Shown: positions 2,730 through 51,732, counted from the stretch's first letter. The stretch: 64,000 nt of DNA from Candidatus Sungiibacteriota bacterium (GCA_016432465.1 CP066690.1:186702-250701); one strand, 5' to 3'. Notes: generated from the letters alone by a model not told the origin. Made by a program: numbers and translations.

Positions 2730-2786
2730 AATTCTGGAATTGCAGTAGTATTGTTATTGTGCAAGAGATCTTTAAGTGCTAATTAC

Positions 2787-3785: not shown

Positions 3786-3894
3786 CTTTGCGGGACAAAA
3801 AATTAAATTAATAAATCCACGAGTTTTAATAATTTGACCTACTTTTCTTATTTTACCCCCTACATATAGGGTGTAAATAGCAAAACCTGTGGAT

Positions 3895-3928
3895 AACTCA
3901 AAGCCCGCTTTTAGGCGGGCTTTGAGTT
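3895..3928. terminator. 14-bp stem hairpin AACTCAAAGCCCGC ttttag GCGGGCTTTGAGTT between two surface-protein genes
   Basis: Perfect palindrome read in sequence. Confidence 0.4.
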
Positions 3929-3954
3929 ATTTAAGTGGTGGTGCAGACAAAAAA

Positions 3955-4024
3955 CCCCGTTAGAGATAAGTCCCGACGTGACGTCGGGACTGCCGATACC
4001 CAAGGCATCGGATCTCTAACGGGG
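3955..4024. mobile_element. MITE-like element (~70 bp) with 13-bp terminal inverted repeats CCCCGTTAGAGAT / ATCTCTAACGGGG and the internal hairpin GTCCCGACGTGACGTCGGGAC
   Basis: Terminal inverted repeats read directly; the same core recurs at 33032-33133, 56867-56968 and 58365-58554. Confidence 0.55.
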
Positions 4025-4045
4025 CAAGCAAGATTCCGTAAAAGT

Positions 4046-4069
4046 AAAGACCCCTTTGAGGGGGTCTTT
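4046..4069 (-). terminator. Intrinsic terminator hairpin AAAGACCCC tttgag GGGGTCTTT, 40 bp downstream of the 1221-aa gene stop
   Basis: 9-bp GC stem followed by ACTTTTAC on the minus strand. Confidence 0.5.
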
Positions 4070-4110
4070 ACCGCTAGCACAAGGATCTAGCTTAGGAAGT
4101 CAAACTTCCC

Positions 4111-7100
4111 TTAGTTTGAGAAGACGTTGGAAGACAGGTTGGTAGATGGAAGTCCTGGTACAAGGAAGCCGTTAGTCCAGTCAGTGGTTGAGGTTGCGGT
4201 TGAAATCGTGGTAGAGGTTGACATCGCTGACCACACAAAGTCGTTGTGAATGGCTGCGTTGCCCGAATCAATACCAAGCGCAACCGTAGCTGCTGTACAA
4301 AGCTTACCTCGCCCGGAATCGTGACAGCCTGTATTACCAAGCGCTTGGTCAGCCGTTGTGCTGGGGTTGGCTACGTGAGCAGGACGAGCGGCATCACCTT
4401 CAAGTTGTACGGTAATGGAGTTACCAGTTCCGGATCCGGGGTTAGTAATGTCTCCACGAAGCTCAAAGTATCGGGTTGCTCCGGCAGGAACAACGATTGC
4501 TTCGGTTGTGGAGGCAAGATTAGCCACCGGGCCAAAGAACCATACTACTTCACCAGTACCGCCACCTGCGGTTGAAGGAGCTGCCGGTGTGTTGGACGCA
4601 GTTGAGGTTACAGCCGTAGTAGCTACGTTACAACCGTTGGTGTCATTGTCTAAGTTAGACGAACCAGCACAATCAACATTGGAGCTATGAAGCGGGTTAT
4701 TGTCATACGCCTTAACCGAGAATCCAGAGTCAGTGTAGCCGTAAACGTTGAAGTTAGAAGATGTTGCCGAAACCGTAGAAGACGATACCAAGAAGGTGAA
4801 TTTGTAGAGCGCAATTGGTCCTGCCGCATCTGCCGTTACCTTAAAGCGATACATTACGGCAGCGGTTTGCGGAAGCGTAGTTGAAGGAACGGCAATTTTC
4901 TCAATTGTGGGTATAGATTTCATGATCTGCATGCCATTTCCCTGAACGCTGGGGCCGCTGGCCTGACCCAATCTCGCGCCTGACGACACACCAGTACCGG
5001 TTGAAGAACTGTTGGTGTCGTAGTTAATTGAGAGAATCCGACCGGCAGTGGTAGATGCTGTTACGCTGATGGTTCCTACGTCCGCCTTAACAGTAAGTAT
5101 CTTATCTCCATCTTTTGGCACTACGAAAGGAGCAGAAAGGGTGGAGGTTGCAAACTGCGCAGTTCCTGCCCAAACCGCTTCACCAATCTTAGTGGCGCCG
5201 TCCCACAACGAAACTTTCGTAAAGTCAGAGCTGGATGCTGTGGTGGAGGCGAAAGTAAGGGTGACATCCGTAATATTTACCGCTTCATCAACCGCCGAGT
5301 ACTTCAAGGCAAGCATAGGAACATCGGTCTTTCCTGAAAGAACCAGCGCTGCGGAAGGAGTGGCTCCATCCTTGGTTACGCTGAAAGAACCGGCAGATTT
5401 AATGGTCATAAGCGATCCGGTTCCCGTAGTAATGCTCTCGGTGATGCTTACACCTGTCTTTGCTCCGGAAGAACCAATGTTGGATGCGCCGGCATTAGTG
5501 CCCCAAGAATGGGTGCTATTGGCCGTTGCCGAGGAAGAAATGTTGCACTTAAGGTCAACTTTCTTAATGGTTCCTTTGGGAACAACAAGGTTGGTGGTAA
5601 GCGTGAAGGTGGTGTCATCAGTGGTTCCGGTTGAAGGATCGTCCGGGTTAACTACGTCGGATCCGCTGTTCAATTGCGTTGCGCCGTCATAGAGAATACA
5701 GCTATTCAACTCATCAAAAACACCGTTGGCTGATGCTGTATCTCGCAACTGGATGGAAGTAACCCGTACATCTTCACCTGATGCTACCGCATCAAAGATG
5801 TAGGTTGCGAAGTGGTATCCGTTAACTCCTTTTACTACGTTTTGCGCAAACGGCGTGTCGTTCACTGAAACTTTCAGCGCCGCCGGCTTTACGGTCTGAC
5901 CATTGGCTTGCACCAAGGTGCTAGCCGGAGTTGCGCTAATCGTAAGCCCGGTTATCGTGCCTTTGGCAGTGGTGTTGGACGGGTTAACACCGACTCTAAT
6001 AGTGTCATCCGCAACAAAGGAGGAATCAAGTTTGGCTTTTACAATATAAACATTGGCTCCTACTGGTGCGGTCCAGGTGTCTGTCCAAGCTACCTTACCA
6101 CTGGCTGGGTCTTTAGGACCAGCAACAATTCCGCCCTTGCTATCATACAGGGATACGCTCGTAACATCAGTTGATGTTCCGTTACCGGTAAAGGTGAAGT
6201 TTAAATCTATGGCCGTGAACTGAATGGGCTCGCCTTTTACGTCAAAAGTAAGGGCGCCAATCTCAATGTCAGACACCTCAACCGGAATGTTTCCGGAAGC
6301 AATCTTGTTAGAGCTTGAGAGAAGCACTGATCCTTTATCAATTGTTCCGGCATAAGCGTTGAAGAATGGCTCCTGATTAGAGGAGAATGCTCCCGCGCCA
6401 GCCGTACCGGATGATCCGCCGCCTACCACAATGTGGTAGCCGTAAAGTCTGCCTTGTACCACAATGTCTGCCTTCTTAAGAATGTCAAAGTCAAAGGTTC
6501 TGCCCGAACCGTCAACAACATCAATTTTTACAGATAAATCAATGTTGCCTCCCTTAATAACTTTTATGGGTTCGGTAAATTTGACAATGTAGTATTTGCC
6601 GTCAGAAGAAAGCTCTGTTGGGTACTCTTTATCTCCGGCTTTTACCACTACGTTCTTAAGGTCGGATTTGGCTGCAGATCCGGCTTGGTTGAAGCGAATC
6701 TGCCTAAAGTCAACATCTTCTGCCGAACCAACCGATGCTTTAACAGATGCCGCGTAGTAACCAACTGTTCCTACGTTTTTGGTGTTGGCAGCACCGGGAT
6801 CAAGCGAACCAATAGTCATGGTTACGCTTCCAATAGTCAGGGTGTTGTTGAAGGTCATTCCATTTCCGTCAATGGGGAACGTGCCGTTTACTTTAGAAGT
6901 ACCGGCGTCTATGGAAAGAACAGTCAACCGTCCTACCTGACCGGTTTGGTTGGTTAGGGAAGAAGCCGAGTTTACTGCAATAGTAACTGTCTTGGAAGTA
7001 CCTGCCTTAACCACCAAGCCATCCGTAAGGGTTGCTTTATGCTCCGAAGTTAAGGTCTTGGAGTTCCCAATCTGCGTTCCGTCCTCATCAAGGAGGAGAA

Positions 7101-7776
7101 TCCCGTCAAAAGCTGCGTCGTCGGCAAGTCCGCGGCGCTCAACAACAACGTTTTTCACTGTTACGTCGCCGTCGGCGCTCGCCGTAAGAATCATTTTGAC
7201 AAAAGGAACGCGTGAAGCAGACTGCGGAACCAATGTTGCCACTGGTTGTTCAGCCGGCGAAGTTACCGTAAGTCCGGAACCAACTGCTACTGAAACAGCT
7301 GGCGCTGCCGGAGCTCCGGGCGCTGCAGGAACTGCAGGCGCTGCCGCTACCACAGAATCATATTTGGCTCGTGAAATTGGACCAAAGTATCCTACGGCAG
7401 GCGATACGCCATTGGCTGCCTGCCATGCGGCTACTGCCGCTTTAGTTACACCACCGAAGTATCCGGTCGCGCCGCCAGAATAGGTGAAGTGGCCAGTACC
7501 GGTGAGATAGTTCTGTAGACATGTCACATCATCACCACGGGACCCCACCGTAAGGGCTCTGGTGAAAGAACACTTTGCTCCCGCACCTGCGGCTGGCGCT
7601 GCTGGCGCGCCGGAAAGTGCAAGAAGTTGTGCTTGGAGAGCTGCAATTTGCGCTGATAATTGCTCAATGGTGTGGGCCGTGGTGTGGTCCGCCACTGCGG
7701 CAATTGGCACTAAAACAGCTGCTCCGGAAATGGCAATAGTGCTTAGCACTGTTACCACTCTAAATTTTATACTCAT
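4111..7776 (-). CDS. Giant (1221 aa) cell-surface protein: signal peptide, coiled coil, PG-binding-like domain, long Ig-like/beta-sandwich repeat region
   Basis: MSIKFRVVTVLSTIAISGAAVLVPIAAVA signal; IEQLSAQIAALQAQLLAL coiled coil; CSFTRALTVGSRGDDVTCLQNYL...GYFGGVTKAAVAAWQAANGV (PG_binding_1-like); Thr/Ser/Val/Gly-rich beta repeats. Confidence 0.75.
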   Translation of the reverse strand: MSIKFRVVTVLSTIAISGAAVLVPIAAVADHTTAHTIEQLSAQIAALQAQLLALSGAPAAPAAGAGAKCSFTRALTVGSRGDDVTCLQNYLTGTGHFTYSGGATGYFGGVTKAAVAAWQAANGVSPAVGYFGPISRAKYDSVVAAAPAVPAAPGAPAAPAVSVAVGSGLTVTSPAEQPVATLVPQSASRVPFVKMILTASADGDVTVKNVVVERRGLADDAAFDGILLLDEDGTQIGNSKTLTSEHKATLTDGLVVKAGTSKTVTIAVNSASSLTNQTGQVGRLTVLSIDAGTSKVNGTFPIDGNGMTFNNTLTIGSVTMTIGSLDPGAANTKNVGTVGYYAASVKASVGSAEDVDFRQIRFNQAGSAAKSDLKNVVVKAGDKEYPTELSSDGKYYIVKFTEPIKVIKGGNIDLSVKIDVVDGSGRTFDFDILKKADIVVQGRLYGYHIVVGGGSSGTAGAGAFSSNQEPFFNAYAGTIDKGSVLLSSSNKIASGNIPVEVSDIEIGALTFDVKGEPIQFTAIDLNFTFTGNGTSTDVTSVSLYDSKGGIVAGPKDPASGKVAWTDTWTAPVGANVYIVKAKLDSSFVADDTIRVGVNPSNTTAKGTITGLTISATPASTLVQANGQTVKPAALKVSVNDTPFAQNVVKGVNGYHFATYIFDAVASGEDVRVTSIQLRDTASANGVFDELNSCILYDGATQLNSGSDVVNPDDPSTGTTDDTTFTLTTNLVVPKGTIKKVDLKCNISSSATANSTHSWGTNAGASNIGSSGAKTGVSITESITTGTGSLMTIKSAGSFSVTKDGATPSAALVLSGKTDVPMLALKYSAVDEAVNITDVTLTFASTTASSSDFTKVSLWDGATKIGEAVWAGTAQFATSTLSAPFVVPKDGDKILTVKADVGTISVTASTTAGRILSINYDTNSSSTGTGVSSGARLGQASGPSVQGNGMQIMKSIPTIEKIAVPSTTLPQTAAVMYRFKVTADAAGPIALYKFTFLVSSSTVSATSSNFNVYGYTDSGFSVKAYDNNPLHSSNVDCAGSSNLDNDTNGCNVATTAVTSTASNTPAAPSTAGGGTGEVVWFFGPVANLASTTEAIVVPAGATRYFELRGDITNPGSGTGNSITVQLEGDAARPAHVANPSTTADQALGNTGCHDSGRGKLCTAATVALGIDSGNAAIHNDFVWSAMSTSTTISTATSTTDWTNGFLVPGLPSTNLSSNVFSN

Positions 7777-8359
7777 AGGTTTATAAGTTCTATTTAATCT
7801 GGAAACCTATTCCTGCCTTCTGTAGTTACAGATTGCAGGAGGGCTTCCTGTGGACGAAGCGCTCATTTTTTATGTGTCGACGAATTGCACATAAACTAGG
7901 GGCGCTTTTTAATTTATTAATTGATAAACAAATAAATGTGGAGTCAAGCCTGCACCCGCGCTTCTTGCGAAGCACGAGATCGACCGGACCTTGAATCTCC
8001 AGACGATCAAATTTCTAAGTTATAAGATTTTTGCCTTTTAAGTTGTCAAGGTTCCCTCCGTTCAACCGTAAATCATTCTTGCAAGCCACATATCAAGCAA
8101 GTCTATCTTTTTAAGTATACCGGCCTGATATATGATTTGCAAACAAGCCCCTGTGGATATTGTAAACCAGCCCAAAAATGGCTTTCTTGCCGAAAATTAT
8201 GAAAGGTAAAACATGCTAGTAACTTAATTATAAGTCCGGTGGGGAACCGCGCAAGCTGCATTTATCCACAGGCTTTTTTGATGATTTATATAAGCTATTA
8301 CAGCAGTCAAAATCCGTCAATATTGTCAGATTTAAAGATTTGTTGTCTAGAGTATCAAG

Positions 8360-9226
8360 TTATCTGACAGTCTTTAAATACCTCCTAAACTCTTTGCCAA
8401 CTTCGGAGTGTTTAAGCCCAAAATCTATTACTGCCCGTAGATAACCAAGCTTATCGCCGCAATCATACCACTCCCCTTTTACCTCGTAGGCGTAAAAACG
8501 GCCACCATCCTTTATATATTTATCAAGGGCTGGTGGGATGTAGATTTCTCCATTTGAGGCTGGTTTAACCTTGGCTAGGTACTCAAAAATCTCGGGGGTA
8601 AAAATATATTTAACAAATATGGCGAGGTTTGAGGGCGCTGTGCCCGGTTTTGGCTTCTCAATGGTGCCGGTAACCCGCCAAGTACGGGGCGCTATCTTTT
8701 TTCCTGCGATAACTCCGTATTTATGTATTTCGCTGTCAGATACTCTGGCTACTCCGACTACCGGCGCCCGATATTTTTTAAAAATACGTACTAGTTGTTT
8801 TAAGGCAGGGGGCTTGGCATCAATAATATCATCCCCTGACATAATCGCGACCGGCTCTTTACCCAGAAGAGGACGCGCCTGTAAAACCGCATCCCCAATA
8901 CCGCGTGGCTCTTTTTGGCGCACAAAAGAAAAAAAGGCCATTGAGGATATTTTTCTAACGGTCCGGGCAAGCTCTGATTTGCCCTTTGCCTCAAGATATG
9001 ATTCAAGCTCTGACGCATGGTCAAAGTGATCCTCAATCGCGCGTTTACCGCGCCCGGTAATTAAAATAACCTCTTTCATGCCTGAAGCCACTGCTTCTTC
9101 AACAAGGTACTGGATCACTGGCTTATCCACAATAGGCAACATTTCTTTGGGTTGGGCTTTAGTAGCGGGAAGAAATCTAGTCCCAAAGCCGCCCACCGGA
9201 ATAATAACCTTTTTTATATCGGTCAT
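8360..9226 (-). CDS. galU: UTP--glucose-1-phosphate uridylyltransferase
   Basis: KVIIPVGGFGTRFLPATKAQPKEMLPIVDKPVIQYLVEEA... is the canonical GalU N-terminus; length 288 aa. Confidence 0.9.
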   Translation of the reverse strand: MTDIKKVIIPVGGFGTRFLPATKAQPKEMLPIVDKPVIQYLVEEAVASGMKEVILITGRGKRAIEDHFDHASELESYLEAKGKSELARTVRKISSMAFFSFVRQKEPRGIGDAVLQARPLLGKEPVAIMSGDDIIDAKPPALKQLVRIFKKYRAPVVGVARVSDSEIHKYGVIAGKKIAPRTWRVTGTIEKPKPGTAPSNLAIFVKYIFTPEIFEYLAKVKPASNGEIYIPPALDKYIKDGGRFYAYEVKGEWYDCGDKLGYLRAVIDFGLKHSEVGKEFRRYLKTVR

Positions 9227-40085: not shown

Positions 40086-40118
40086 GATTGACGTTGGTAA
40101 ACCCCCACACTCATAAAT

Positions 40119-40159
40119 CCCCCCACCTTCCCAGCGGGGTATTCTGGGAAGGTGGGGGG
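40119..40159. repeat. Canonical GC-rich hairpin CCCCCCACCTTCCCAG cggggtatt CTGGGAAGGTGGGGGG (perfect 16-bp stem), 9 nt 3' of tRNA-Gln
   Basis: Perfect palindrome; family recurs at 626-777, 22424-22461 and 39171-39348. Confidence 0.7.
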
Positions 40160-40167
40160 ATAAATTT

Positions 40168-42052: not shown

Positions 42053-43130
42053 ACTCACTTCTGCTTCAATAAATTCACCCAACCCACCGTCCAATACCGC
42101 ATCAATGTTTGAAGTCTCAACCCCTGTCCTGTGGTCCTTCACCATCTGATACGGATGCATAACATAAGAACGGATCTGGCTACCCCATTCCACTGCTACC
42201 TTTTCCTGACGAATTCCTTGCCGTTCTTTTTCCTGACGCTGCAGCTCAAATTGATACAGCCGCGAACGCAAAAGCCCAAGCGCCAGCTCCCGGTTTCGTT
42301 CCTGCGTTCGCTCAACTTGCGAAGCAACTTGTATTCCGGTTGGCAAATGCGTGACCCGCACCGCAGTCTCTCTTTTATTTACATTCTGCCCGCCCGGTCC
42401 GGAGGAACGGAAAAAATCAATTTTCAAATCTTCCGGTTTAATTTCAACTTCTTCCGGGGCGACAAATTCCGGCATAACGTCAGCCAAGGCAAAAGAAGTG
42501 TGGCGGAGCGATTGCGCCGAAAAAGGCGAAATACGCACCAGCCGATGCACTCCGGACTCCTTTTTCAGATACCCGTAAGCGTGGGGAGCTACTATTAATA
42601 TAGTAGCATTTTTTATGCCCCAGCCCCCAGGCCCTTGATTCTCACCCCAATGCTCATGTATGGTCTTTGTTTTCCAGCCGCGTTTCTCACCAAAACGCCG
42701 GTACATCCGTAAAAGCAAAGCTGCCCAGTCTTCGGCGTCCTTACCTCCTGCTCCGGAATAAATTGACAGTACGGCATTGCCCTTATCATACTTCCCGGAA
42801 AAATAAAGCTCTGTTTCCGCTTCTTTTACTTTCTTATCAAGAGCTGCAACCTCTTCCGCTAATTTTGCCTCTCCTTCGCCAACTTCCAGGAGCTCTTTGA
42901 GCATAGCGGCTTCGGCTGCCATCTTTTCAATCCGTTCAGACTCGCGCTTTAATGCCGCCAATTCCTGACTTTGCTCTGCTGCCCGTTTTTTGTCTGCCCA
43001 GAAGTCTGGGCGCTGCATCTCCTGTTCAATTTTCAAAATTTCCTCTTGTTTTCCGGCAATGTCAAAGCCGGTCCGCCAATTGGCGGATCTTAACTTCCAG
43101 TTCGTTAACTTTTTCTTTCTGGTCTTCCAT
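42044..43130 (-). CDS. prfB: Peptide chain release factor 2 with a programmed +1 ribosomal frameshift
   Basis: Frame 0 MEDQKEKVNELEVKIRQLADRL then CTT TGA C at 43062-43067; the +1 frame continues DIAGKQEEILKIEQEM...SGPGGQNVNKRETAVRVTHLPTG (GGQ motif). Confidence 0.9.
43062..43067 (-). other. prfB autoregulatory +1 frameshift site CTT TGA C
   Basis: Identical to the canonical RF2 recoding heptamer; the in-frame TGA follows Leu22. Confidence 0.85.
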
Positions 43131-43179
43131 AACATACAGTATACCATAATCCCAAAATTTAAAAAGCGCGACCGACGGG

Positions 43180-43836
43180 TCACGCCTCTTTTGCTTGGGG
43201 TACAGTACTTGATTTACCCTCCTCCCAAAAACCAAAAATGATGCCTCCGATTTCAAGTTGATATACCATAACAAAGTGCGGGTCACCAGCAAAACGTTCC
43301 TCTGCTTTATACACGTCACTCACAAAGAAATGTATACGATCCTCACTTTGATCAGAAAAGTTTTTCTTAAGACTTGCTATAGTTCTAAGATCAATTAGCG
43401 GTATTTCTCTCGCATAAGGATTAAAACTACTATAAAAACCACCATACTGATAGGAGAAAGATTCCCCGCCAAACTTAAACCCATCAATCTTATCTCTGGG
43501 CCGTAATGCTTTCCAAACCCACTCACGATAAATAGACGCGTCTTCTGGTGAATCATCCGGAATCACTTTGTCGGGTACTTCTTTGCGCGGCCTAAGGTTA
43601 AGAAAACCAAAAACCTCTTGCGGATTATAAATGAGGATCTTTTGTGTCTTCAGAAAGAACAATATCGCTCTCCGCAAAACCGTAGGCAAGTGACACCCAA
43701 CAGCTTGTATAAGTTGGGTGTATTCCTCTAGCTCCTCCGGGCTCATTCCAATATCAGCATCGGTTACCTCACGCGGCTCCGGCTTTTTAATTGCCGGTCT
43801 TGGCAGCGATAGTTGCCTGCGCTTTTCCCAGAACAT
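43180..43836 (-). CDS. Hypothetical protein, paralogue A of a tandem pair
   Basis: Shares KKPEPREV / VIPDD / W.ALRP.D / FFVS / IIFG.W blocks with the next gene. Confidence 0.55.
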   Translation of the reverse strand: MFWEKRRQLSLPRPAIKKPEPREVTDADIGMSPEELEEYTQLIQAVGCHLPTVLRRAILFFLKTQKILIYNPQEVFGFLNLRPRKEVPDKVIPDDSPEDASIYREWVWKALRPRDKIDGFKFGGESFSYQYGGFYSSFNPYAREIPLIDLRTIASLKKNFSDQSEDRIHFFVSDVYKAEERFAGDPHFVMVYQLEIGGIIFGFWEEGKSSTVPQAKEA

Positions 43837-43861
43837 TGGTGCTCCTTTCCTGGTCTTGGTT

Positions 43862-44566
43862 TTAGGCTACTTCTTCCGACGGAATTTCAGCAAAATCCGG
43901 TCCGTTCCAGTGGCCGAAAATTATCGGCTGCATATTGTCACCACGGACTATAATAAACGCCGGGTCATCAATGGTTCTACGGCTGATATACAGGCTAACA
44001 AAGAAGTTTATTCTGATATCAAATTTTTTAGCAAGAAGCACTGCCGTCTCCAGCACCTTACGGGGGACAATATCAGAATAGTGTGGGGAGCCAGCACCAG
44101 AAAAGTAACCATGCGAATATGTTCTATTATGTGTGTGCTCATCTGGAAAAGAAAAGGTGCGTGCGTTTAGGTCTTTTGGGCGTAGCGCCATCCAACCCCA
44201 ACCTCTCCAAGAAACAGGTTGTTTCTTTTGGACTCCGTCGTCAGGAATAATTTTCCTTGGCTCGGGTTGAGAAACCAAAAAGTCACAGGCCTGAAGGTAT
44301 AAAAACACAGCTTCTTTTTCGTAGATTTTAATGCCCGAACTTTTAAGCAGTAGCAGCAATTCTGCCCTCAATGCCGCCGCGGGCTGAAAATCAATGCTGG
44401 CGCCAAGCCGGCAATACTCTAACCACGTTTTCTCGTCAAAATCACCGTAAAGTTCTGGTATTTCTTGGGGTTCTGGCCTTTTGACCATTATTAATTTTGA
44501 AGGTGCAGGAGTAATTCCATCTGCTTTTTTAACCGGGAGTTTGCTTCTTGATGTAAAAAGAGACAT
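43862..44566 (-). CDS. Hypothetical protein, paralogue B of the tandem pair
   Basis: KRPEPQEI, IIPDD, WMALRPKD, FFVS, IIFGHW. Confidence 0.55.
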   Translation of the reverse strand: MSLFTSRSKLPVKKADGITPAPSKLIMVKRPEPQEIPELYGDFDEKTWLEYCRLGASIDFQPAAALRAELLLLLKSSGIKIYEKEAVFLYLQACDFLVSQPEPRKIIPDDGVQKKQPVSWRGWGWMALRPKDLNARTFSFPDEHTHNRTYSHGYFSGAGSPHYSDIVPRKVLETAVLLAKKFDIRINFFVSLYISRRTIDDPAFIIVRGDNMQPIIFGHWNGPDFAEIPSEEVA

Positions 44567-44656
44567 CCTTTAATCCCCCATCAAGCTAGCATCTAGTATT
44601 GCATAACTATATAACTTTGTCAAGTGACAGCAAAAAAACGGCGTTGAACGCCGTCT

Positions 44657-45322
44657 TCAGCCATGAAACCGATCAACCCTGTTGGACAGACTGTAGAAAC
44701 TTAATAGCGGGGTTTGGTGAGCTGTAGCTTCCCCTGTACCCGCTTCATGCGGTTGTTCATCCAGAATTTCTTTGGTTTTGCTAAGCTTTGTAAACCGTCT
44801 TTGCAGGAACAAAAATTTTATTCTCTTGAAAAGCCCAAAGTCAAAAATTCCCCGAATTCCCATAATAATCTCTTCAAGGGTTATCGTAACAGTTCCGGCT
44901 AATAGGAAGGTGGCGACAGAACGAGCCACTGGTTCTACTGTATTATCCATAACTCCCCAATAAGAAGTTGCGGCCGAAATTATCAAAGTAAGAAAGCCGA
45001 CTGCGGCAATATTGCGTTTGACCGAGCGCACAACTATTTTTTCCAATTCCTTCCTTTCGTGATCAGGCAACCCGCACAGCTCAAGCGTATCATCAAACAT
45101 GTATCTTCTGACGTATCGCTCCAGAAGCCTATGGTACTCTAACGAGTCCCTAGTCAGTCTTTGTTTACGAAACTCCAAGGCTTCTTTTCTGGCTGTCTCT
45201 TGGGCCTCAACCCTCTGCTTTTGAGCAAGACGCTCAAGCTCATGATGCCGTTCTATGCGCCTTGTCTGAATACGTTCACGTGCATTTTGCATGATCACCG
45301 GATCCATTTTTTCACCTCGCAC
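44657..45322 (-). CDS. Hypothetical protein with a central TM segment
   Basis: Charged N-terminal coiled region; AAVGFLTLIISAATSYWGV TM. Confidence 0.45.
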   Translation of the reverse strand: MRGEKMDPVIMQNARERIQTRRIERHHELERLAQKQRVEAQETARKEALEFRKQRLTRDSLEYHRLLERYVRRYMFDDTLELCGLPDHERKELEKIVVRSVKRNIAAVGFLTLIISAATSYWGVMDNTVEPVARSVATFLLAGTVTITLEEIIMGIRGIFDFGLFKRIKFLFLQRRFTKLSKTKEILDEQPHEAGTGEATAHQTPLLSFYSLSNRVDRFHG

Positions 45323-46149
45323 TGGTTCTCTTCCAAAACGACAAGTAACTCCTTATGAAATAAGGTACGGGCAAACTCTTCCTCCTCGTCTGCGCCCTCA
45401 TTTCTTACCAAAGTTAGGTTGAAAATACCCCCATTCAGCGTCAGCACGACATCTGTAAAAGACACGGCAACCATATTTTTATTAATTTTTTCTGTTTTTC
45501 CGCTGCCCTCGTAGTGCGCCAAGTGACCAAGACGGTCACAATAAACTGCCGCAGCACCCCGAAAAAGTAAGGTTTGGTCGCTAGCTAGTCCGAGATTGTG
45601 ACGCACCAAAATAGAATTTGTGTCTTCCTTAAGTTCTTTTTCCCCCGCGTCATCCCTTCTAAACTTTCTAATTCTTCTGCAGTCACACCTAACTTTTTCC
45701 TCTCTCCAAAAACTCCAGTTACCAAAAGATTGTAAAAGGGCGCTAATCTTCCCCTGCTTTGTTCCACCCAGCCATGCGGCGTCCGCAAGCAAAGTTCCTT
45801 CTGAAGGAAACCCTGTTTTTTCGTTCCACACCACACTGCATATTTGTGGCGCGTCTTTCTGATGTTCCAGAACCTCGGCGTGAGCCGCAAGAGCAAGGAG
45901 AAACATTTTGTGCAAGACGGCCATCGCATAGAAGTCGGGGCCAGACTTTTTTATTTCAAATTTAGAGACCGTATCCAGCCGTTCTTGAATACGCGCCAGT
46001 GATTCCTCGGGCGTAAGGATGTTTGCCCATGGCTCTTTCTGTATAGAAGAAGCCTGTTCCTGCTGTCCAAAGACAAAATCTCCAGAAAGTTCGCCCAAGG
46101 GAACAGAAAGTAACCCACCACCGTCAACAGCTCCCATAAGTCTCCCCAA
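45295..46149 (-). CDS. Hypothetical protein
   Basis: Co-oriented ORF; no motif recognised. Confidence 0.45.
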   Translation of the reverse strand: MGRLMGAVDGGGLLSVPLGELSGDFVFGQQEQASSIQKEPWANILTPEESLARIQERLDTVSKFEIKKSGPDFYAMAVLHKMFLLALAAHAEVLEHQKDAPQICSVVWNEKTGFPSEGTLLADAAWLGGTKQGKISALLQSFGNWSFWREEKVRCDCRRIRKFRRDDAGEKELKEDTNSILVRHNLGLASDQTLLFRGAAAVYCDRLGHLAHYEGSGKTEKINKNMVAVSFTDVVLTLNGGIFNLTLVRNEGADEEEEFARTLFHKELLVVLEENQCEVKKWIR

Positions 46150-46283
46150 ACAAGTAGTAAAAAGCTGTATCTATTATAATCATGAAACGACCCATGAGTC
46201 AAGTCCTTCGTAATGGTTCAATAGCTTGTAACCACCCCGTATAAATTAAAAACAGGTTCCCCTATGGAAACCCGTTCTTCTTT

Positions 46284-46538
46284 CTATTTTTTATCTGCTG
46301 CCTTCTTGCGTCCGGAGCGTTCCTGTTTTTTTGCGTCAGCCCTACCCTTTTCAAACTGACCCACAATGGTTCCTGCACCGTAAACAGTCCTTTTGGTCAA
46401 TTCTCCTGCTGCTTCGGCGGCATTTCCCATCAGTCTTTTTCCGCGCTCCCAAAGATAACTTCCCACTACTCTAGTCTGCCCCTTCAGGAACTCAAGCTCT
46501 GGACTAAACTTCCGGTGGTCGTTTTTGTCTTTAGCCAC
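46284..46538 (-). CDS. Small hypothetical protein (84 aa)
   Basis: Co-oriented ORF; basic C-terminus. Confidence 0.4.
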   Translation of the reverse strand: MAKDKNDHRKFSPELEFLKGQTRVVGSYLWERGKRLMGNAAEAAGELTKRTVYGAGTIVGQFEKGRADAKKQERSGRKKAADKK

Positions 46539-46543
46539 GACTA

Positions 46544-46765
46544 CTACTCCCTATCCCTATTTTCTCTTCGTCTTGCTTTAGAAACAAGCCAAACTAACCC
46601 CAACACACCCGCAACTGGCACCGCTAATGCCGTTACAGTAGTAATCGCCATACTGCCAACCCCGAGTGAAAAACCAAGCACTTTCCATAAAGCCGCTCCT
46701 CCTGCTCCAGCAACTACTATCGGTCCTACCAAATTCCCCACACTGCGTGCACTACTCCTTGCCAT
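46544..46765 (-). CDS. Small glycine-zipper membrane protein (start probably at the internal Met MARSSARS)
   Basis: GPIVVAGAGGAALWKVLGFSLGVGSMAITTVTALAVPVAGVLGLVWLV. Confidence 0.45.
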   Translation of the reverse strand: MARSSARSVGNLVGPIVVAGAGGAALWKVLGFSLGVGSMAITTVTALAVPVAGVLGLVWLVSKARRRENRDRE

Positions 46766-47789
46766 CGGCCGCCTCCCCTTGCTGAACGGCACCTTCTGCC
46801 GTCTGTTCCCCACCAGCTTTTGCTGCGGGACCAACCGCCCTGCTTCTTACCCGCGCCTCAAGTTGCAGGCGCCCGGAAGACGCGGGCCCCAAGACGCGGG
46901 CACATTTTTCACGCAACTCTGTATCCGCCAACTCAAGACGTTCTACAAGTTCACGACCTGCTACAGGACGCTTATTTAAAACCTCCATCACGTCAACTGC
47001 GGCCATCAGGGATTGATGCGAACTCTCAACCGTCTTTATCAGCAACTCACCCGCAACAAAAACGCCTCTACCTGCCCCAAGCGCGGCCCTAGCAGCCTCG
47101 CGATGCGCGGTGATACTTGGCTTCAAGGTGGCAAACTCAACGTACATCGCTATCACCATATGTATGATGCCTAGAATCTCATTGCTTACCGAACTTAATT
47201 TCCGGCTTGCCTTCTCCAGAGCGGTTTTTCTTCTTTGCAGACTAGCAAGAATCATTTGAGCAAAGATGTCTTTTTCTTCTTGGTCCATGTTTTCGCCGCG
47301 AAGTCTAAGAAGTTCAACCACTTCCGGATCAATTGCCAAACCCATTTTATTTGATTCATCAAGACTGTACTTAAAAAGCTCTTCCTCGTCCCAACCACCT
47401 TCTGTGGCATCTTGAATGACTCCAGCAAGACGTTCCTTTTCTTCTGCATTATTCATTTCTACATACTTAATATCCAAGGCGCTCTCCTGAAGACTGTTGG
47501 CCCACTCTCTTATCACCTGCTCTGCCCCCACCAGCGGATCAAATCTGTTATCCATAAAACCAAACAACAATTTTTGAACCTTTTTGATGGGTATCAAAGC
47601 CACCACACCTTCCATCACGCCCCTTAAAAAGTCCTCGGCCGAAGACGGCTCTGATTCCATCATCTCTTCCAGACGCTCTGGCAACTTCTCTCTTTGTTCG
47701 TTAGCTGCTCTTACCTTCCTAATTATTGCTTCAATGCTGCGTCCGCCTTCTAAACGATCTCGTGTTTCAACAACTCCGCTGACTGCCAT
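46752..47789 (-). CDS. Coiled-coil hypothetical protein (345 aa) in a GC-richer segment
   Basis: Long helical/charged regions; a TelA-like assignment was considered but not supported. Confidence 0.5.
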   Translation of the reverse strand: MAVSGVVETRDRLEGGRSIEAIIRKVRAANEQREKLPERLEEMMESEPSSAEDFLRGVMEGVVALIPIKKVQKLLFGFMDNRFDPLVGAEQVIREWANSLQESALDIKYVEMNNAEEKERLAGVIQDATEGGWDEEELFKYSLDESNKMGLAIDPEVVELLRLRGENMDQEEKDIFAQMILASLQRRKTALEKASRKLSSVSNEILGIIHMVIAMYVEFATLKPSITAHREAARAALGAGRGVFVAGELLIKTVESSHQSLMAAVDVMEVLNKRPVAGRELVERLELADTELREKCARVLGPASSGRLQLEARVRSRAVGPAAKAGGEQTAEGAVQQGEAADGKE

Positions 47790-47979
47790 CTTTGCCTCCG
47801 TACGGCTTGAAGCCAGTGTAGACTATGCTGTTTAGAGTATACAACCTCTACAAATCTATGTCAAGTTTAGCGTGGGGGTTTATCAAAAATTCCGCCACGC
47901 CCTCGCTTGCCTGCCCGTCCGAATCCGTCAGCTGGCAGAGAAGGCTGGACGGCAAATCCTTTGAAAAGTTAAAAATGGA

Positions 47980-48005
47980 AACGGAGCACCATAGGGTGCT
48001 CCGTT
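47980..48005 (-). terminator. Intrinsic terminator AACGGAGCACC atag GGTGCTCCGTT downstream of the GC-rich secreted-protein gene
   Basis: 11-bp stem followed by TTCCATTTTTAACTTTT on the minus strand. Confidence 0.55.
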
Positions 48006-48018
48006 GGAACTGCTCCGT

Positions 48019-48450
48019 CTAATAACTGCAGTAACGCTTCTCGCCGAAGCGTTCCTGCGGATAACTCCGCAGGCACTTCAGGGTCATCAGGTTCCTCTGG
48101 AAGACTGCCAGCACCGCCGACACGGAGTCCACGTCTTCGAAGTTGAAAACGAGGTCCGTGTCATCAAGACAGGCACCAGTGATGCGACGCCCGGTCGTGC
48201 CTGCCTGCCGGGACATCTCGAGCGCCCGCTTGAGCGCCCGAATCCCGACCCTGTTTTCGGCGATCAGCTTGGAGAGGGGCTGATCGCCATTCGGGACGAC
48301 GTACCCGAAGGCATTCCGCCCTCTCTTCACGTCCCTGCAAAGCGAGTCGGCGGTCGCCGCCTCGCTCGGGTGGTGGGCGAAAACCGGGGTGGCGAGGGCC
48401 ATCACGGCGAGGAACACCACAGCGAGAACGACGATGAACTTCAACCTCAT
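48019..48450 (-). CDS. Secreted Cys-containing small protein encoded in a GC-rich islet
   Basis: Signal peptide MRLKFIVVLAVVFLAVMALATPVFAHHP; AGAGGAGG Shine-Dalgarno 7 nt upstream; local GC content visibly higher than the flanking sequence. Confidence 0.6.
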   Translation of the reverse strand: MRLKFIVVLAVVFLAVMALATPVFAHHPSEAATADSLCRDVKRGRNAFGYVVPNGDQPLSKLIAENRVGIRALKRALEMSRQAGTTGRRITGACLDDTDLVFNFEDVDSVSAVLAVFQRNLMTLKCLRSYPQERFGEKRYCSY

Positions 48451-48612
48451 GGGAACCTCCTCTCGTTTGATTGCCGCAGCGGTATGCTACGGCAACAAAG
48501 AAAAAACTAACCTCTTAACTCCCTCTTTGTTGCCGTAGAATATAGCCTATTTTAAGATACTTAGTAGCTAACTCAATAGTAACATAAATGTAGAAAAAAG
48601 TCAAATAAATTA

Positions 48613-48777
48613 GCCTACCCCGGGACTTGAACCCGAAACCCATTTACCCCGTTAGATGTGCCAATGAGCCGGTGGTCGGATTTGAACCGACGACCCACGC
48701 TTTACGAAAGCGTTGCTCTACCACTGAGCTACACCGGCACATCTAACGGGGTTGCTCTGCCATTGAGCTAGGTCGGC
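48613..48777 (-). other. Split tRNA-like sequence whose 5' half (acceptor and D-arm) and 3' half (T-arm and acceptor) are separated by an insertion bounded by a perfect 16-bp inverted repeat (CCCCGTTAGATGTGCC) that contains tRNA-Thr
   Basis: 5' half GCCGACCTAGCTCAATGGCAGAGCAACCCC; 3' half GGGGTAAATGGGTTTCGGGTTCAAGTCCCGGGGTAGGCT; inverted repeats at 48647-48662 and 48736-48751. Confidence 0.35.
48667..48738 (-). tRNA. tRNA-Thr (anticodon CGT)
   Basis: GCCGGTGTAGCTCAGTGGTAGAGCAACGCTTTCGTAAAGCGTGGGTCGTCGGTTCAAATCCGACCACCGGCT; anticodon stem ACGCT/AGCGT, loop TTCGTAA. Confidence 0.75.
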
Positions 48778-48840: not shown

Positions 48841-50172
48841 TCAATTGTGATTAAGGGCTCCTTCAGTATAAATATTAGCGGCGTTCCAAAGGAGCCACCC
48901 GTGCGGCTCTGCTTTTTCTGCGGCTTCAACTTGTTTACGAATTTTCTCAACGCCCCATGGCCTACCAGCGACCCTATCTTCTTCATGGAAAAAATCTTCA
49001 AGCCACGGACGGAGACGCGCCCGGGAACGGGGAGTAGAACTTGCGGCTAGAGTTATTGCGGAAGTGGCCGGAGAAAAACCGTTAAAGGTGCTCGTGCTGA
49101 TTTTTCCATCAAGAAAATCTCTGGCAAACTGCAGCGAACGATATACCACAACGTCGGGATTTTTGCGGGCCTGCGACACACTAAAATTAACGACCGGTAA
49201 ATTCTTGTCCGGGTCGGCCTGAAGATAAAGTCCGCTGTAGTAGTGTGAAGGGTAAACCATAAATGATACGTAGTCAAAATTGTCGCCGATGTCATCTAGC
49301 CGCTGACCAATGCCCACGTCTCCGGCCCGAATCGCGGCGTACCCAAAAAGATCTGCCGAAAGTATTATATCCGGTTTGTGGGCCTTAAGATTTTTATTTA
49401 AATACTCAAAAAAACTTTTCATAACCGAGTACTTGGGGGCTTTTCCGTCCCAAGCAGGATAAATAGCATTCTCTACATCGCCGTCCGAAGGAAACCTTAA
49501 ATAGTCAAACTGCAATTCATCAAAACCCAAATCAATTATTTTTTTAGAAAAGTCCGCAATATACTCGCGCGCGCCCTGATGAGCAGGATCCAACCAATAG
49601 CCCCCGCGTTTATCGCGCCAAAAAACCACATCCGGTTTTTTACCCTCCGGACTTTTAGCGCGGAGATATTTTTTTCTGCCGCACTCATCGCCAACCGCTT
49701 TAGGACTTTTTCTGGTCAGGTACCAGTCGGGGTGCGTTTCAATCTGCGAGGCATCTTTGAAAGCAACAATCCGCGCAATAACCCAAATCTTTTTTTGATG
49801 AAGCTCCGCAATCAATTTTTTTAAACTTTCGGCGTTATAGTCAGGCCCGCAGACTTCTTTAACGTCAATCACAAGACCGTTGATCTCTGTCTCGTCAGCA
49901 AGCTCAATAATTTTCTTGCGAAGCCGTGTACCCGCAACACCCTGATCATTGGCCACGTCTGCTGTCATATAAAGTCCCTTGACGGTTTGGGACTTTTTAA
50001 GGGCTTCGGCCAGTAATTCTGCGGAGGTTTTTTCTTTAGCGGGCTGCATACCGGACGTCAAAATCCCACCAGCCAAATTGCCTATAAATATTTTTGGTGC
50101 GGCCCAGTAAATAGTTAAGGCGGCGGCACCAACTATGATTCCCGTGCCAAGACCCATCAAAAACCTATTCAT
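48841..50172 (-). CDS. Membrane-anchored putative glycoside-hydrolase-like TIM-barrel protein (GHL10/DUF4015-like)
   Basis: N-terminal TM; GYWLDPAHQGAREYI and FDELQFDYLRFP motifs. Confidence 0.55.
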   Translation of the reverse strand: MNRFLMGLGTGIIVGAAALTIYWAAPKIFIGNLAGGILTSGMQPAKEKTSAELLAEALKKSQTVKGLYMTADVANDQGVAGTRLRKKIIELADETEINGLVIDVKEVCGPDYNAESLKKLIAELHQKKIWVIARIVAFKDASQIETHPDWYLTRKSPKAVGDECGRKKYLRAKSPEGKKPDVVFWRDKRGGYWLDPAHQGAREYIADFSKKIIDLGFDELQFDYLRFPSDGDVENAIYPAWDGKAPKYSVMKSFFEYLNKNLKAHKPDIILSADLFGYAAIRAGDVGIGQRLDDIGDNFDYVSFMVYPSHYYSGLYLQADPDKNLPVVNFSVSQARKNPDVVVYRSLQFARDFLDGKISTSTFNGFSPATSAITLAASSTPRSRARLRPWLEDFFHEEDRVAGRPWGVEKIRKQVEAAEKAEPHGWLLWNAANIYTEGALNHN

Positions 50173-50253: not shown

Positions 50254-51732
50254 TCAACCAAGATCGCCCTGCAGTCTTTTTAACCTCTTGATGTCTCTTG
50301 CTACGAGCTTATGGCTGCCCCGCAAAGAACTGGACACCGGTATGCTCCTACCTTTTACGCTAAATAAACCCCAATCATAGTAACCAGAGAGTCCGCTTCT
50401 GACCAAGGCCGTAATGTGACGTTTACGAAGCTCGGCTCTCGGAGCAGCCCTGTGCTCCCATAACACTTCACGCATCTCCTCATCCGAGAAAGGATCACGG
50501 CCGCCCAGACGCGCCTGCCACATATTATAAATACCGACCGGACTTATATCATGGTAGGCAAAATCAAACATACGCGCCCGGAAATCTGAATAATCAGACC
50601 TTTCCTTGCGACAATAATTATCCAGTAGCAGACGCTTTAAAGACCAGTCAGTATCATTAGCATACGCCTCCGGGTCGGTTCCTGTCCTAATAAGGTTGTG
50701 GGCATGTCTAAGAGTTCCCCTGATCTTATCGGACGTGTCTGTCGTTTCTCCTTCATAAAATTTGCGTAAAATCTCCAGCCACTCCAAAAGAACTTCCCGC
50801 ATACACCACTGGCCGCGTCCTTTAACAACTGTTTTTGCTCCAAGTGACGGGTCTAAAGAAAACGTCCGCAGGGCGTCATAAGGATCCTCTAAAAGCGGCA
50901 GGCTTGATCCTACGGGTCCTTTTTCAAAAAGAGAAAGAAAGACGTGCATAAGTGTCACCCGTAAACGAAGCGCTTGAGGCAACATGTTAGGGTCCCCAAG
51001 AGAAAGATGCAAACGCGTCCTGCCTTGAGGACAGTCTTCCCTTTCATTTTTAAAGTCAATAGATGGATGTCCACTCATCTCACCGTGCCAATAAACAAAT
51101 GGCTGGCGCATAAGTGCACGGGGAGAGATAACGTACTGCCACCCCAATCCGTCAAGATTCACTAAACCCCCTCCTCCAGCTAACAGCTGTCTTGAAACCA
51201 GAAGAGAAATCAAGGCTTCAAAAAATAATGGATGTTTCTGGTGGATCGTCAAATCATATCTGGTTTCGTAATTCTCATGCGAGCCGCGGAAATGGATTTT
51301 TTTGGACTTACCCCTGACAGCGTCAGAGTTATTCTTTGCAATAACCAGTGTTTTAAATTGCGGATTTTGTGAACGGAGGACTGGTTCTATGGCCTCACGC
51401 AGCAGATTAATAACCCGCTCGCCGCCCTTATCTGCCCGTACAAGCTGCTCCACGCTGCAGCACTCCGGCGTAGCGTACTCAACGTTGCCGGCATCAAGAT
51501 AAAGCGCGCCGCCGGTTGAACCTAACCAAAAGTCTTTTCCGGCGTCCCCCATCAAAAAAAGTTTCTTGACTGCGGGTGGACAGCCATCGTCTGCAAGAGA
51601 GATAATCTGATGTACTGGTTTAAAAAAATACATGTCCACCTTTACCATACTTGAAAACCTGTTCTTGTTGTTTTTTGTACGTACTGCGGTCAGGCTATAC
51701 TCGGTCTCAATACCCATGGGGCGACGTTTCAT
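50254..51732 (-). CDS. PafA/Dop-family carboxylate-amine ligase (Pup--protein ligase / depupylase homologue)
   Basis: MKRRPMGIETEYS, GGALYLDAGNVEYATPEC, KNNSDAVRGKS...GSHENY and DFAYHDI match PafA MQRRIMGIETEF, ARLYLDVGSHPEYATAEC, KNNTDSAG..GCHENY, DLAYHDI. Confidence 0.8.
   Translation of the reverse strand: MKRRPMGIETEYSLTAVRTKNNKNRFSSMVKVDMYFFKPVHQIISLADDGCPPAVKKLFLMGDAGKDFWLGSTGGALYLDAGNVEYATPECCSVEQLVRADKGGERVINLLREAIEPVLRSQNPQFKTLVIAKNNSDAVRGKSKKIHFRGSHENYETRYDLTIHQKHPLFFEALISLLVSRQLLAGGGGLVNLDGLGWQYVISPRALMRQPFVYWHGEMSGHPSIDFKNEREDCPQGRTRLHLSLGDPNMLPQALRLRVTLMHVFLSLFEKGPVGSSLPLLEDPYDALRTFSLDPSLGAKTVVKGRGQWCMREVLLEWLEILRKFYEGETTDTSDKIRGTLRHAHNLIRTGTDPEAYANDTDWSLKRLLLDNYCRKERSDYSDFRARMFDFAYHDISPVGIYNMWQARLGGRDPFSDEEMREVLWEHRAAPRAELRKRHITALVRSGLSGYYDWGLFSVKGRSIPVSSSLRGSHKLVARDIKRLKRLQGDLG

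Follow-up and report, generated by a model that had tools for sequence, protein, structure and literature searches.

Seven co-oriented genes of unassigned function lie between prfB and a tRNA gene in a Candidatus Sungiibacteriota chromosome, and their compact arrangement raises the question of whether they work together as one system. A reading of the DNA alone (hereafter the sequence-only reading) had described them as an operon-like block that could be a novel stress, envelope or defence module. We followed up this proposal within the window, that is, the whole 64,000-nt stretch of DNA analyzed. We lean towards the view that the block is a lineage-specific accessory islet built from three mini-operons, rather than a single functional module.

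Seven minus-strand genes of mixed character

All seven ORFs previously placed at 43180–47789 are present on the minus strand, and the deposited label for the islet genes (HYW89_01085–01115) is “hypothetical protein”. In the order of transcription, G7 (46752–47789, 345 aa, HYW89_01115; GGAGG SD) is followed by G6 (46544–46765, 73 aa), which shares 14 nt with the end of G7 and has a GGGGAGG SD before its ATG, and by G5 (46284–46538, 84 aa), which starts 5 nt after G6. The start of G3 (44657–45307, 216 aa) overlaps the stop of G4 (45295–46137, 280 aa, HYW89_01100) by 13 nt, and G1 (43180–43836, 218 aa, HYW89_01085), with its own AAGGAG SD, begins 25 nt downstream of G2 (43862–44566, 234 aa, HYW89_01090). 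Inside these three sub-groups, SD motifs precede the starts and neighbours overlap by 13–14 nt or sit 5–25 nt apart. On the basis of SD sites and gene calls, three of the product sizes first reported for these ORFs need revision: the most likely starts are ATG 46137 for G4 (280 aa rather than 284), ATG 45307 for G3 (216 aa rather than 221) and ATG 46765 for G6 (73 aa rather than 96), with the alternative TTG start at 46834, which would give the 96-aa form of G6, being less likely.

The products differ widely in their features. G7 is acidic and mostly hydrophilic, with one hydrophobic helix at residues ~204–223 and a low-complexity, GC-rich C-terminal tail; its earlier description as a coiled-coil protein is at best tentative, as a crude score of our own yields one heptad-like stretch (~residues 178–215) that 4% of shuffles equal. 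G6 is glycine-rich (GxxxG-type) with two TM-like segments and basic ends, G5 is hydrophilic and very basic (pI 10.2), and G4 is soluble and acidic. The first 100 aa of G3 are highly charged, residues ~105–160 make up a hydrophobic hairpin, and the C-terminus is basic. The hydrophobic TM-like segments of G3 and G6 bear out the membrane character that both had been given. Strain variation in G4 comes to one variant, a single SNP at 45530, and dN/dS from strain variation is unusable because the other contigs are identical or one SNP apart.

Predicted terminators and promoters divide the array into three units

The three sub-groups are set apart from each other and from prfB by gaps of 146 nt (G5–G4), 90 nt (G3–G2) and 49 nt (G1–prfB), each of which is associated with a stable hairpin and a U-tract on the minus strand. 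After G5, hairpin T1 (46248–46279) forms 14 bp flanked by an A-tract and a U-tract (dG −18.3 kcal/mol, z −6.1); T2 (44634–44658), at the G3 stop, forms 11 bp followed by U7 (dG −17.6, z −4.7); and T3 (43161–43190), which overlaps the G1 stop and separates G1 from prfB, forms 13 bp followed by U5 (dG −18.8, z −3.7). G7, G4 and G2 are each preceded, also on the minus strand, by near-consensus, sigma-70-like hexamers that match at 10–11 of 12 positions and lie in the adjoining gap. These promoter-like sites are P1 (47836–47864, TTGACA-17-TATACT, 11/12), 46 nt ahead of the G7 start codon; P2 (46173–46202, TTGACT-18-TATAAT, 11/12), in the G5–G4 gap; and P3 (44595–44623, TTGACA-17-TG-AATACT, 10/12, with an extended −10), in the G3–G2 gap. 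An 11-bp terminator hairpin (48005–47980) that closes the upstream GC-rich gene precedes P1, and a TGnTATACT motif stands ahead of prfB. An automated terminator scan of the region did not list T1–T3, and the ten promoter-like sites of the region do not exceed the 6.9 ± 2.7 expected from shuffling.

From these predicted sites we infer three separate units, G7-G6-G5, G4-G3 and G2-G1, followed by prfB; read-through could still yield one long transcript. The short gaps or overlaps noted by the sequence-only reading hold within the sub-groups and break down at the G5–G4, G3–G2 and G1–prfB junctions, and its operon-like block is split by internal terminator and promoter predictions.

G1 and G2 are tandem copies from an undescribed protein family

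G1 and G2 align over their whole length (BLASTP, 31% identity over 213 aa, E 2e-17), and their similarity is not of low complexity, in agreement with the view that they are clear paralogues. Every block on which that view was based, K(K/R)PEP.E, IPDD, W.ALRP.D, FFVS and IIFG.W, appears in the G1–G2 alignment. Three of these blocks occur family-wide, as RPxP, W.WRPLR..D and FFVSDY/IVFG.WDEP. Two insertions, IPDD and a single residue within “DPxF”, are exclusive to G1 and G2 within the family and identify them as sister copies; each is also the best hit of the other. Judged by the shared inserts and mutual best hits, the tandem duplication is lineage-specific. The C-terminal DEPxF motif, near-invariant in the family, is partly lost in both, reading NGPDF in G2 and EEGKS in G1.

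A profile search (E≤1e-3) recovered a family of at least 222 clusters (50% identity) whose median length is 204 aa. Against a 40-member profile, G1 and G2 score 142–146 bits over their full length, and they keep 11 of 11 invariant columns (P of RPxP; W, L, R and D of W.WRPLR..D; Y..VP; DPF; W of FG.W), which places both within the family. TM-like segments are found in 5 of 148 members, and the median pI is 5.8. Comparison of 40 members with Pfam and PHROGs gave no match, a search of 10 long members against Pfam for informative fusions found none, and PDB sequence searches with single sequences and family profiles were likewise negative. Modeled with AF2 from a 40-sequence alignment, G2 reached a pLDDT of 80.7 and a pTM of 0.76 (an earlier run from two sequences only gave a pLDDT of 54), and is predicted to consist of an N-terminal disordered tail, one domain of three helices and another, small domain of alpha/beta type; this model has no Foldseek match in PDB or BFVD at E≤1e-3. 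By these profile and database comparisons, G1 and G2 belong to an undescribed, apparently soluble family of ~200 aa that is without a database model.

To place the family in its genomic settings, we used a tighter alignment (A3) for the locus search, the alignment A2 being too diverse for pattern-based searching. Its hosts are Patescibacteria (CPR) chromosomes and the early or DNA-metabolism regions of phages or temperate elements. Across ~30 independent loci, this genome alone has two adjacent copies, the family being single-copy in every other locus, and no recurrent neighbour family was found. In CPR chromosomes the neighbourhoods differ from locus to locus, and many members sit in plainly chromosomal housekeeping surroundings. 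Elsewhere, an IMG/VR contig carries a member with ligase, FEN and NAD-salvage genes, and other contigs pair one with integrase, SbcC and ThyX. RecT, RusA and GcrA accompany a further member in an early region of lambdoid type. Conservation of the gene neighbourhood, the check proposed with the sequence-only reading, came out negative: none of the ~30 loci with a G1/G2 relative keeps the gene set, and none holds a homologue of G3–G7.

G3–G7 have no detected relatives outside this genome

Searches of all seven products against Pfam, NCBIfam, PHROGs, PADLOC and PDB sequences returned no match, consistent with the original finding that none carries an assignable motif. Neither of the two outcomes that the sequence-only reading had named as counting against it, assignment to housekeeping families or paralogy through low complexity only, was observed. 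All seven products are singleton clusters from one genome; among 5.8e9 clusters, G7 and G2 each found only itself. For G4, metagenome and viral contigs yielded no relative; searches of GenBank phages were negative for G3, G4 and G7, as were those of IMG/VR for G3 and G7. Taken together, word-index searches, pattern scans and single-sequence HMM libraries, all of limited sensitivity, detected no relative of G3–G7 outside this genome; distant homologues may exist, because the fully sensitive profile search covered G1/G2 only. By hhalign, G4 is unrelated to the G1/G2 family profile, and the 64-kb window holds no further paralogues of the seven. As far as these searches reach, G3–G7 are young or fast-evolving genes.

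A probable lineage-specific accessory islet

In the arrangement that we favor, each of the three mini-operons would have its own sigma-70-like promoter and intrinsic terminator, with translational coupling inside. In unit G7-G6-G5, a helical protein that contains a single hydrophobic helix would be made together with a glycine-rich 2-TM peptide and a small, basic product; unit G4-G3 would pair a soluble protein with a charged one anchored in the membrane, and unit G2-G1 would supply a duplicated soluble two-domain protein of ~200 aa. Three of the five G3–G7 products are predicted to insert in or attach to the membrane, and from this we infer that their most likely role lies at the cell surface, in functions particular to the niche or host. 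G1 and G2 would act alone or as homo-oligomers, possibly as a G1–G2 hetero-oligomer here, and may serve as a cytoplasmic binding or regulatory factor rather than as part of a multi-gene system.

With no system present, the seven-gene “module” is of no import, and the block is a typical islet in a small CPR genome. It does offer a CPR example in which co-orientation and tight spacing do not imply an operon, three predicted units being readable from the sequence. The family delineated here, with a confident G2 model that lacks a Foldseek neighbour, is a candidate Pfam/DUF entry and is relevant to gene exchange between CPR bacteria and phages.

Alternative readings of the islet

The islet could instead be what is left of a prophage or integrative element that inserted near tRNA-Thr and then decayed, with moron-like cargo units and a phage-derived G1/G2 pair, a reading that we regard as doubtful. 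In its favor, tRNA-Thr lies 880 nt from the block, and the neighbouring 143-aa gene is clearly foreign in composition (GC 0.62, GC3 0.82), the only such gene found. The family occurs in phage and integrase-bearing contigs, the closest outside relative of G1 (P0003) sits among small co-oriented unannotated ORFs, and the promoter–gene(s)–terminator layout resembles that of phage morons. The block itself, however, has no integrase, recombinase, PHROG or Pfam match, and no att-like or flanking direct repeat was found around it; the two arms of an 18-nt inverted repeat, at 40094 and 47886, share no extended similarity. As the sequence-only reading had observed, the far end is GC-enriched (0.54–0.55 at 46500–47250 vs 0.41–0.49 elsewhere). 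The tetranucleotide composition of the block is indistinguishable from the window average (z 0.13) and its GC3 is 0.39–0.47 vs 0.46 for native genes. The many family members in housekeeping neighbourhoods also count against a phage origin.

A single co-regulated module of all seven genes, with a role in stress, the envelope or anti-phage defence, is unlikely. Such a module would fit seven compact, co-oriented genes, three of them with products bearing membrane segments and none with a housekeeping assignment, at a site adjoining a tRNA gene and a GC-anomalous gene, as is typical of accessory islands. Yet PADLOC-DB v2 gave 0 families at E≤1 for the seven products and the neighbouring 143-aa ORF, no enzymatic or NTPase/nuclease-type domain is detectable with Pfam, three predicted terminator-plus-promoter junctions interrupt the block, and neither the set nor any pair beyond G1/G2 is conserved in the ~30 related loci. 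There is no positive evidence for a defence or stress system, and the “module” part of the proposal is contradicted by the three predicted units and the lack of a conserved set.

We give similarly little credence to an extended scenario for G1/G2, as a new family, possibly with a new fold, common to CPR chromosomes and phage or temperate-element early regions, that acts in translation termination or ribosome/RNA repair, as its places beside prfB here and between rtcB and prfH in one phage-like contig would suggest, or as a domesticated phage-type takeover or regulatory factor, its duplication here being a rare subfunctionalisation into a hetero-oligomer.

It is very unlikely that some of the small ORFs, G5 or G6, are not genes and that the seven-gene array is partly a product of ORF calling. 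Neither has a homologue, and for G6, which is short and Gly/Ala-rich, the coding model scores the annotated frame below an antisense frame, with a start that differs by pipeline (65, 73 or 96 aa). Two independent pipelines nevertheless call both genes, both have SD-like sites with a spacing that fits translational coupling with G7, and G6 has the two TM-like segments and basic ends expected of a small membrane protein. The G5 frame is clearly preferred (−5 vs −110 and −188 bits/kb). Frame-specific statistics support G1–G5 and G7 as coding, strongly so for G7, the annotated frame standing 100–240 bits/kb above the other frames, similar to prfB.

Least credible is a functional tie of the G1/G2 family to translation termination or to the rescue of ribosomes, a tie that would account for its place directly upstream of prfB. 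G1 ends 49 nt before prfB, and in one phage-like metagenome contig (L022), and only there, a member is flanked by an RtcB fragment on one side and a PrfH-like gene with an RF-1 domain on the other; RtcB–PrfH is normally a tight two-gene ribosome-repair operon (PMC1586002, PMC9304027). An RF-domain neighbour, however, occurs in only 2 of ~30 independent loci and was spotted post hoc, G1 is set apart from prfB by a predicted terminator and by a separate predicted promoter, and the remaining contexts are unrelated to translation termination.

Comparison with known systems

The likeness to the RtcB–PrfH operon comes down to the one relative between rtcB and prfH and, here, to G1 lying upstream of an RF2 gene; that operon, as described, consists of two genes without a third component (PMC1586002, PMC9304027). 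The window, by comparison, contains no RtcB or PrfH, its prfB is a canonical frameshifted RF2 with PCRF and RF-1 domains and no RtcB nearby, and L022 is the only locus with this association.

Phage morons are promoter–gene–terminator cassettes, and each unit here is similarly bracketed by a promoter-like site and a hairpin/U-tract terminator, the G1/G2 family also occurring in phages; unlike morons, these units hold two or three genes rather than one, and the block lacks a prophage backbone, an integrase, an att site and any anomaly of composition. G7 presumably resembles the TelA-like toxic-anion-resistance proteins (PF05816) in being ~350 aa, helical and acidic with small membrane proteins downstream, but it matches no Pfam family, TelA included, even at E≤1. 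G6 has GxxxG-type spacing in two hydrophobic segments (e.g., GFSLGVG), which may liken it to glycine-zipper 2-TM peptides; it matches none of the Pfam Gly-zipper families at E≤1.

The block is also comparable to the lineage-specific hypothetical-protein islets of CPR/Patescibacteria, with which it shares compact co-oriented genes without family assignment, several membrane-associated products and native composition, and from which it differs only in that two of its genes come from a sizeable family without a database model.

Gene content and predicted transcription units

The host sequence belongs to a MAG assigned on deposition to Candidatus Sungiibacteriota (Patescibacteria/CPR), on a contig of 923 kb whose annotation lists the seven ORFs as hypothetical proteins (HYW89_01085–HYW89_01115). 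The genes are co-oriented, as the sequence-only reading had stated, all of them on the minus strand, and are numbered here from the prfB end, G7 being transcribed first. Judged by SD sites and by separate gene callers, the likeliest starts give G7 (47789–46752, 345 aa), G6 (46765–46544, 73 aa), G5 (46538–46284, 84 aa), G4 (46137–45295, 280 aa), G3 (45307–44657, 216 aa), G2 (44566–43862, 234 aa) and G1 (43836–43180, 218 aa). Coding status was evaluated using a periodic Markov model trained on the long genes of the window, with prfB left out. Across G1–G5 and G7 the annotated frame outscored both the remaining frames and the opposite strand by 100–240 bits/kb, a preference shared by prfB from outside the training set; the G6 ORF is too short and Gly/Ala-rich for a judgement by this model. 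The composition of the block is native, with GC3 of 0.39–0.47 (versus 0.46 ± 0.02 in native genes) and an average tetranucleotide distance (z 0.13; 35th of 119 windows). A GC-enriched far end, also reported from the sequence, is indeed present (GC 0.54–0.55). By tetranucleotide composition the most deviant part of the window lies at ~2000–9000 (z up to 3.9), centred on a 1221-aa ORF (4111–7776, minus strand).

The genes had been described as one operon-like array, a description that does not survive inspection of the spacers. Three gaps break the array (G5–G4, 146 nt; G3–G2, 90 nt; G1–prfB, 49 nt), and each opens with a stable minus-strand hairpin that has an A-tract on one side and a U-tract on the other (after G5, dG −18.3 kcal/mol, z versus shuffles −6.1; after G3, −17.6 kcal/mol, z −4.7; after G1, −18.8 kcal/mol, z −3.7), comparable to the 11-bp terminator closing the GC-rich 143-aa gene upstream. 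Minus-strand promoter-like sites follow the G5 hairpin, before G4 (TTGACT-18-TATAAT), and the G3 hairpin, before G2 (TTGACA-17-TG-AATACT); another stands 46 nt before G7 (TTGACA-17-TATACT). Because hairpins and promoter-like sites occupy the gaps, and genes elsewhere overlap by 13–14 nt or are spaced by 5–25 nt with SD sites, three transcription units are predicted: G7-G6-G5, G4-G3 and G2-G1. In this model transcripts would start near 47830, 46166 and 44588 and would end near 46245, 44630 and 43158. The three hairpins were not listed by an automated terminator scan, and the total count of promoter-like sites was not above shuffled expectation.

Directly after G1 comes prfB (true ATG at 43130), in which CTT TGA C forms the classic site of programmed +1 frameshifting (window 43062–43147, minus strand). 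The ATG has no SD site and is preceded, after a gap of 7 nt, by an extended −10 motif (TGgTATACT, of the form TGnTATACT), features which together suggest that the RF2 mRNA is leaderless.

G1 and G2 are copies of a soluble, probably stand-alone factor

The proposed paralogy of G1 and G2 is genuine and extends over their full length (BLASTP, 31% identity over 213 aa, E 2e-17), and every shared block cited in its favour is present in the alignment. When 1.84e9 cluster representatives were scanned with a profile built from G1 and G2, no word index being used, 222 proteins matched at E≤1e-3, of which 24 reached E≤1e-10; the median length is 204 aa. In an alignment of 40 members the N-terminus is conserved and often reads MFG; the other shared features are RPxP, a helical stretch (EY..IGF.P..LL...L.FL....I.VYD..EV..YL) and the motifs W.WRPLR..D, Y..VPL.VL, FFVSDY....PDPFIMV and IVFG.WDEPGF. 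G1 and G2 retain 11 of the 11 invariant residues, and the final DEPxF motif is degenerate in both. Since an IPDD insert and a one-residue DPxF insert are common to these two proteins only, and each is the other's best match, the duplication is lineage-specific. The family is soluble (a TM-like segment in only 5 of 148 members; median pI 5.8); its members have no match in Pfam or PHROGs, and the long ones carry no recognisable fused domain. G2 and G1 are two copies of one cytoplasmic, probably stand-alone factor, and the finding of relatives among the early genes of phages hints that its role may lie in binding or regulation.

Products of G3–G7

Searches of Pfam, NCBIfam, PHROGs and PADLOC (even at E≤1) and of PDB sequences returned no match for any of the seven products, in agreement with the sequence-only reading that none carries an assignable motif. 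G3–G7 form singleton clusters confined to this genome. Searches of limited sensitivity gave only a self-match for G7 among 5.8e9 clusters, and no relatives of G4 in metagenome or viral contigs, of G3, G4 and G7 in GenBank phages, or of G3 and G7 in IMG/VR; given that sensitivity, these genes are properly said to have no detected relatives. Judging solely by the TM-like segments of G3 and G6 and the one hydrophobic helix of G7, the products of G7-G6-G5 and G4-G3 probably work at the membrane or close to it. G7, previously called a coiled-coil protein, does contain one heptad-like stretch (~35 residues), but the assignment is weakly supported, by a crude home-made score only.

Flanking elements

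Upstream of G7, HYW89_01125 (48019–48450, minus strand; 143 aa) has no family match. Its GC of 0.62 and GC3 of 0.82 (versus ~46% GC for the genome), strong AGGAGG SD, signal-peptide-like N-terminus and 11-bp terminator point clearly to a foreign, high-GC origin; a second gene caller chose an antisense 168-aa ORF here (48004–48510, plus strand). Beyond it, tRNA-Thr(CGT) (48666–48738) interrupts the anticodon loop of another tRNA-like sequence (48612–48777, minus strand), with a perfect 17-nt inverted repeat around it (48646–48662/48736–48752). When the inner part was cut in silico, ARAGORN called the outer sequence as a 76-nt tRNA, either Leu-TAG (loop GTTAGAT) or with an amber-reading CTA anticodon (loop ATCTAAC); its acceptor stem has one G.A mismatch. 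Farther out, a DUF4015 glycosyl-hydrolase-like gene (48841–50172) adjoins a gene for a 492-aa Pup-ligase-family protein (50254–51732, minus strand; PF03136, E 3.7e-54).

An 18-nt motif, TTGRTAAACCCCCACRCT, occurs in two exact, inverted copies (chance expectation 0.13), one at 40094–40111 (plus strand), next to tRNA-Gln and to a perfect hairpin of 18 bp (40117–40161), the other at 47869–47886 (minus strand), directly upstream of the G7 promoter; their flanks share no extended similarity.

Genomic context and origin of the block

We surveyed 40 family loci, ~30 of them independent. In Adler-, Portnoy-, Pacei- and Moranbacteria MAGs and several long contigs, the family gene sits in unrelated housekeeping neighbourhoods (for example ftsEX-pyrG; pth, lepB, hisS; ftsAZ, tsaD, valS; RNR, VIT1, ftsQ; dnaB, cysS, dnaJ). 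Phage or temperate contexts comprise an IMG/VR contig (DNA ligase, FEN-type exonuclease, PncA, NadE, NAPRT), groundwater contigs (integrase, SbcC-like exonuclease, ThyX), a lambdoid-type early region (RecT, RusA, GcrA) whose rightward operon has the family gene in second place, and other contigs made up of small co-oriented ORFs lacking annotation. Among the ~30 independent loci, there was no two-copy locus outside this genome, no recurrent neighbour family and no G3–G7 homologue beside any member. The seven genes are not a conserved unit, and the suggested stress, envelope or defence module found no supporting evidence.

The best-supported reading is that the block would be a lineage-specific accessory islet built from three independent mini-operons. 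Its main rival, a decayed mobile element, draws on the nearby tRNA-Thr, the adjoining foreign gene, the moron-like cassettes and the phage relatives of G1/G2, but the block has no integrase, no compositional signal and no att sites, att-like repeats having been sought around it and not found.

An RF-family neighbour, noticed post hoc, occurs in 2 of the ~30 loci: prfB here, and a PrfH-like RF-1-domain protein on metagenome contig Ga0116229_10060898 (16–1959), where an RtcB fragment, a 72-aa ORF, the family member and the PrfH-like gene stand in a row. This contig is phage-like, and next in line are a GAF-domain protein and an ATLF-like metallopeptidase. RtcB and PrfH are known to form a two-gene ribosome-repair operon (PMC1586002, PMC9304027); the RF-family adjacency of the G1/G2 family is suggestive at best. 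The seven-gene block itself is ordinary among CPR genomes, and wider interest is confined to the G1/G2 family, which no database model represents.
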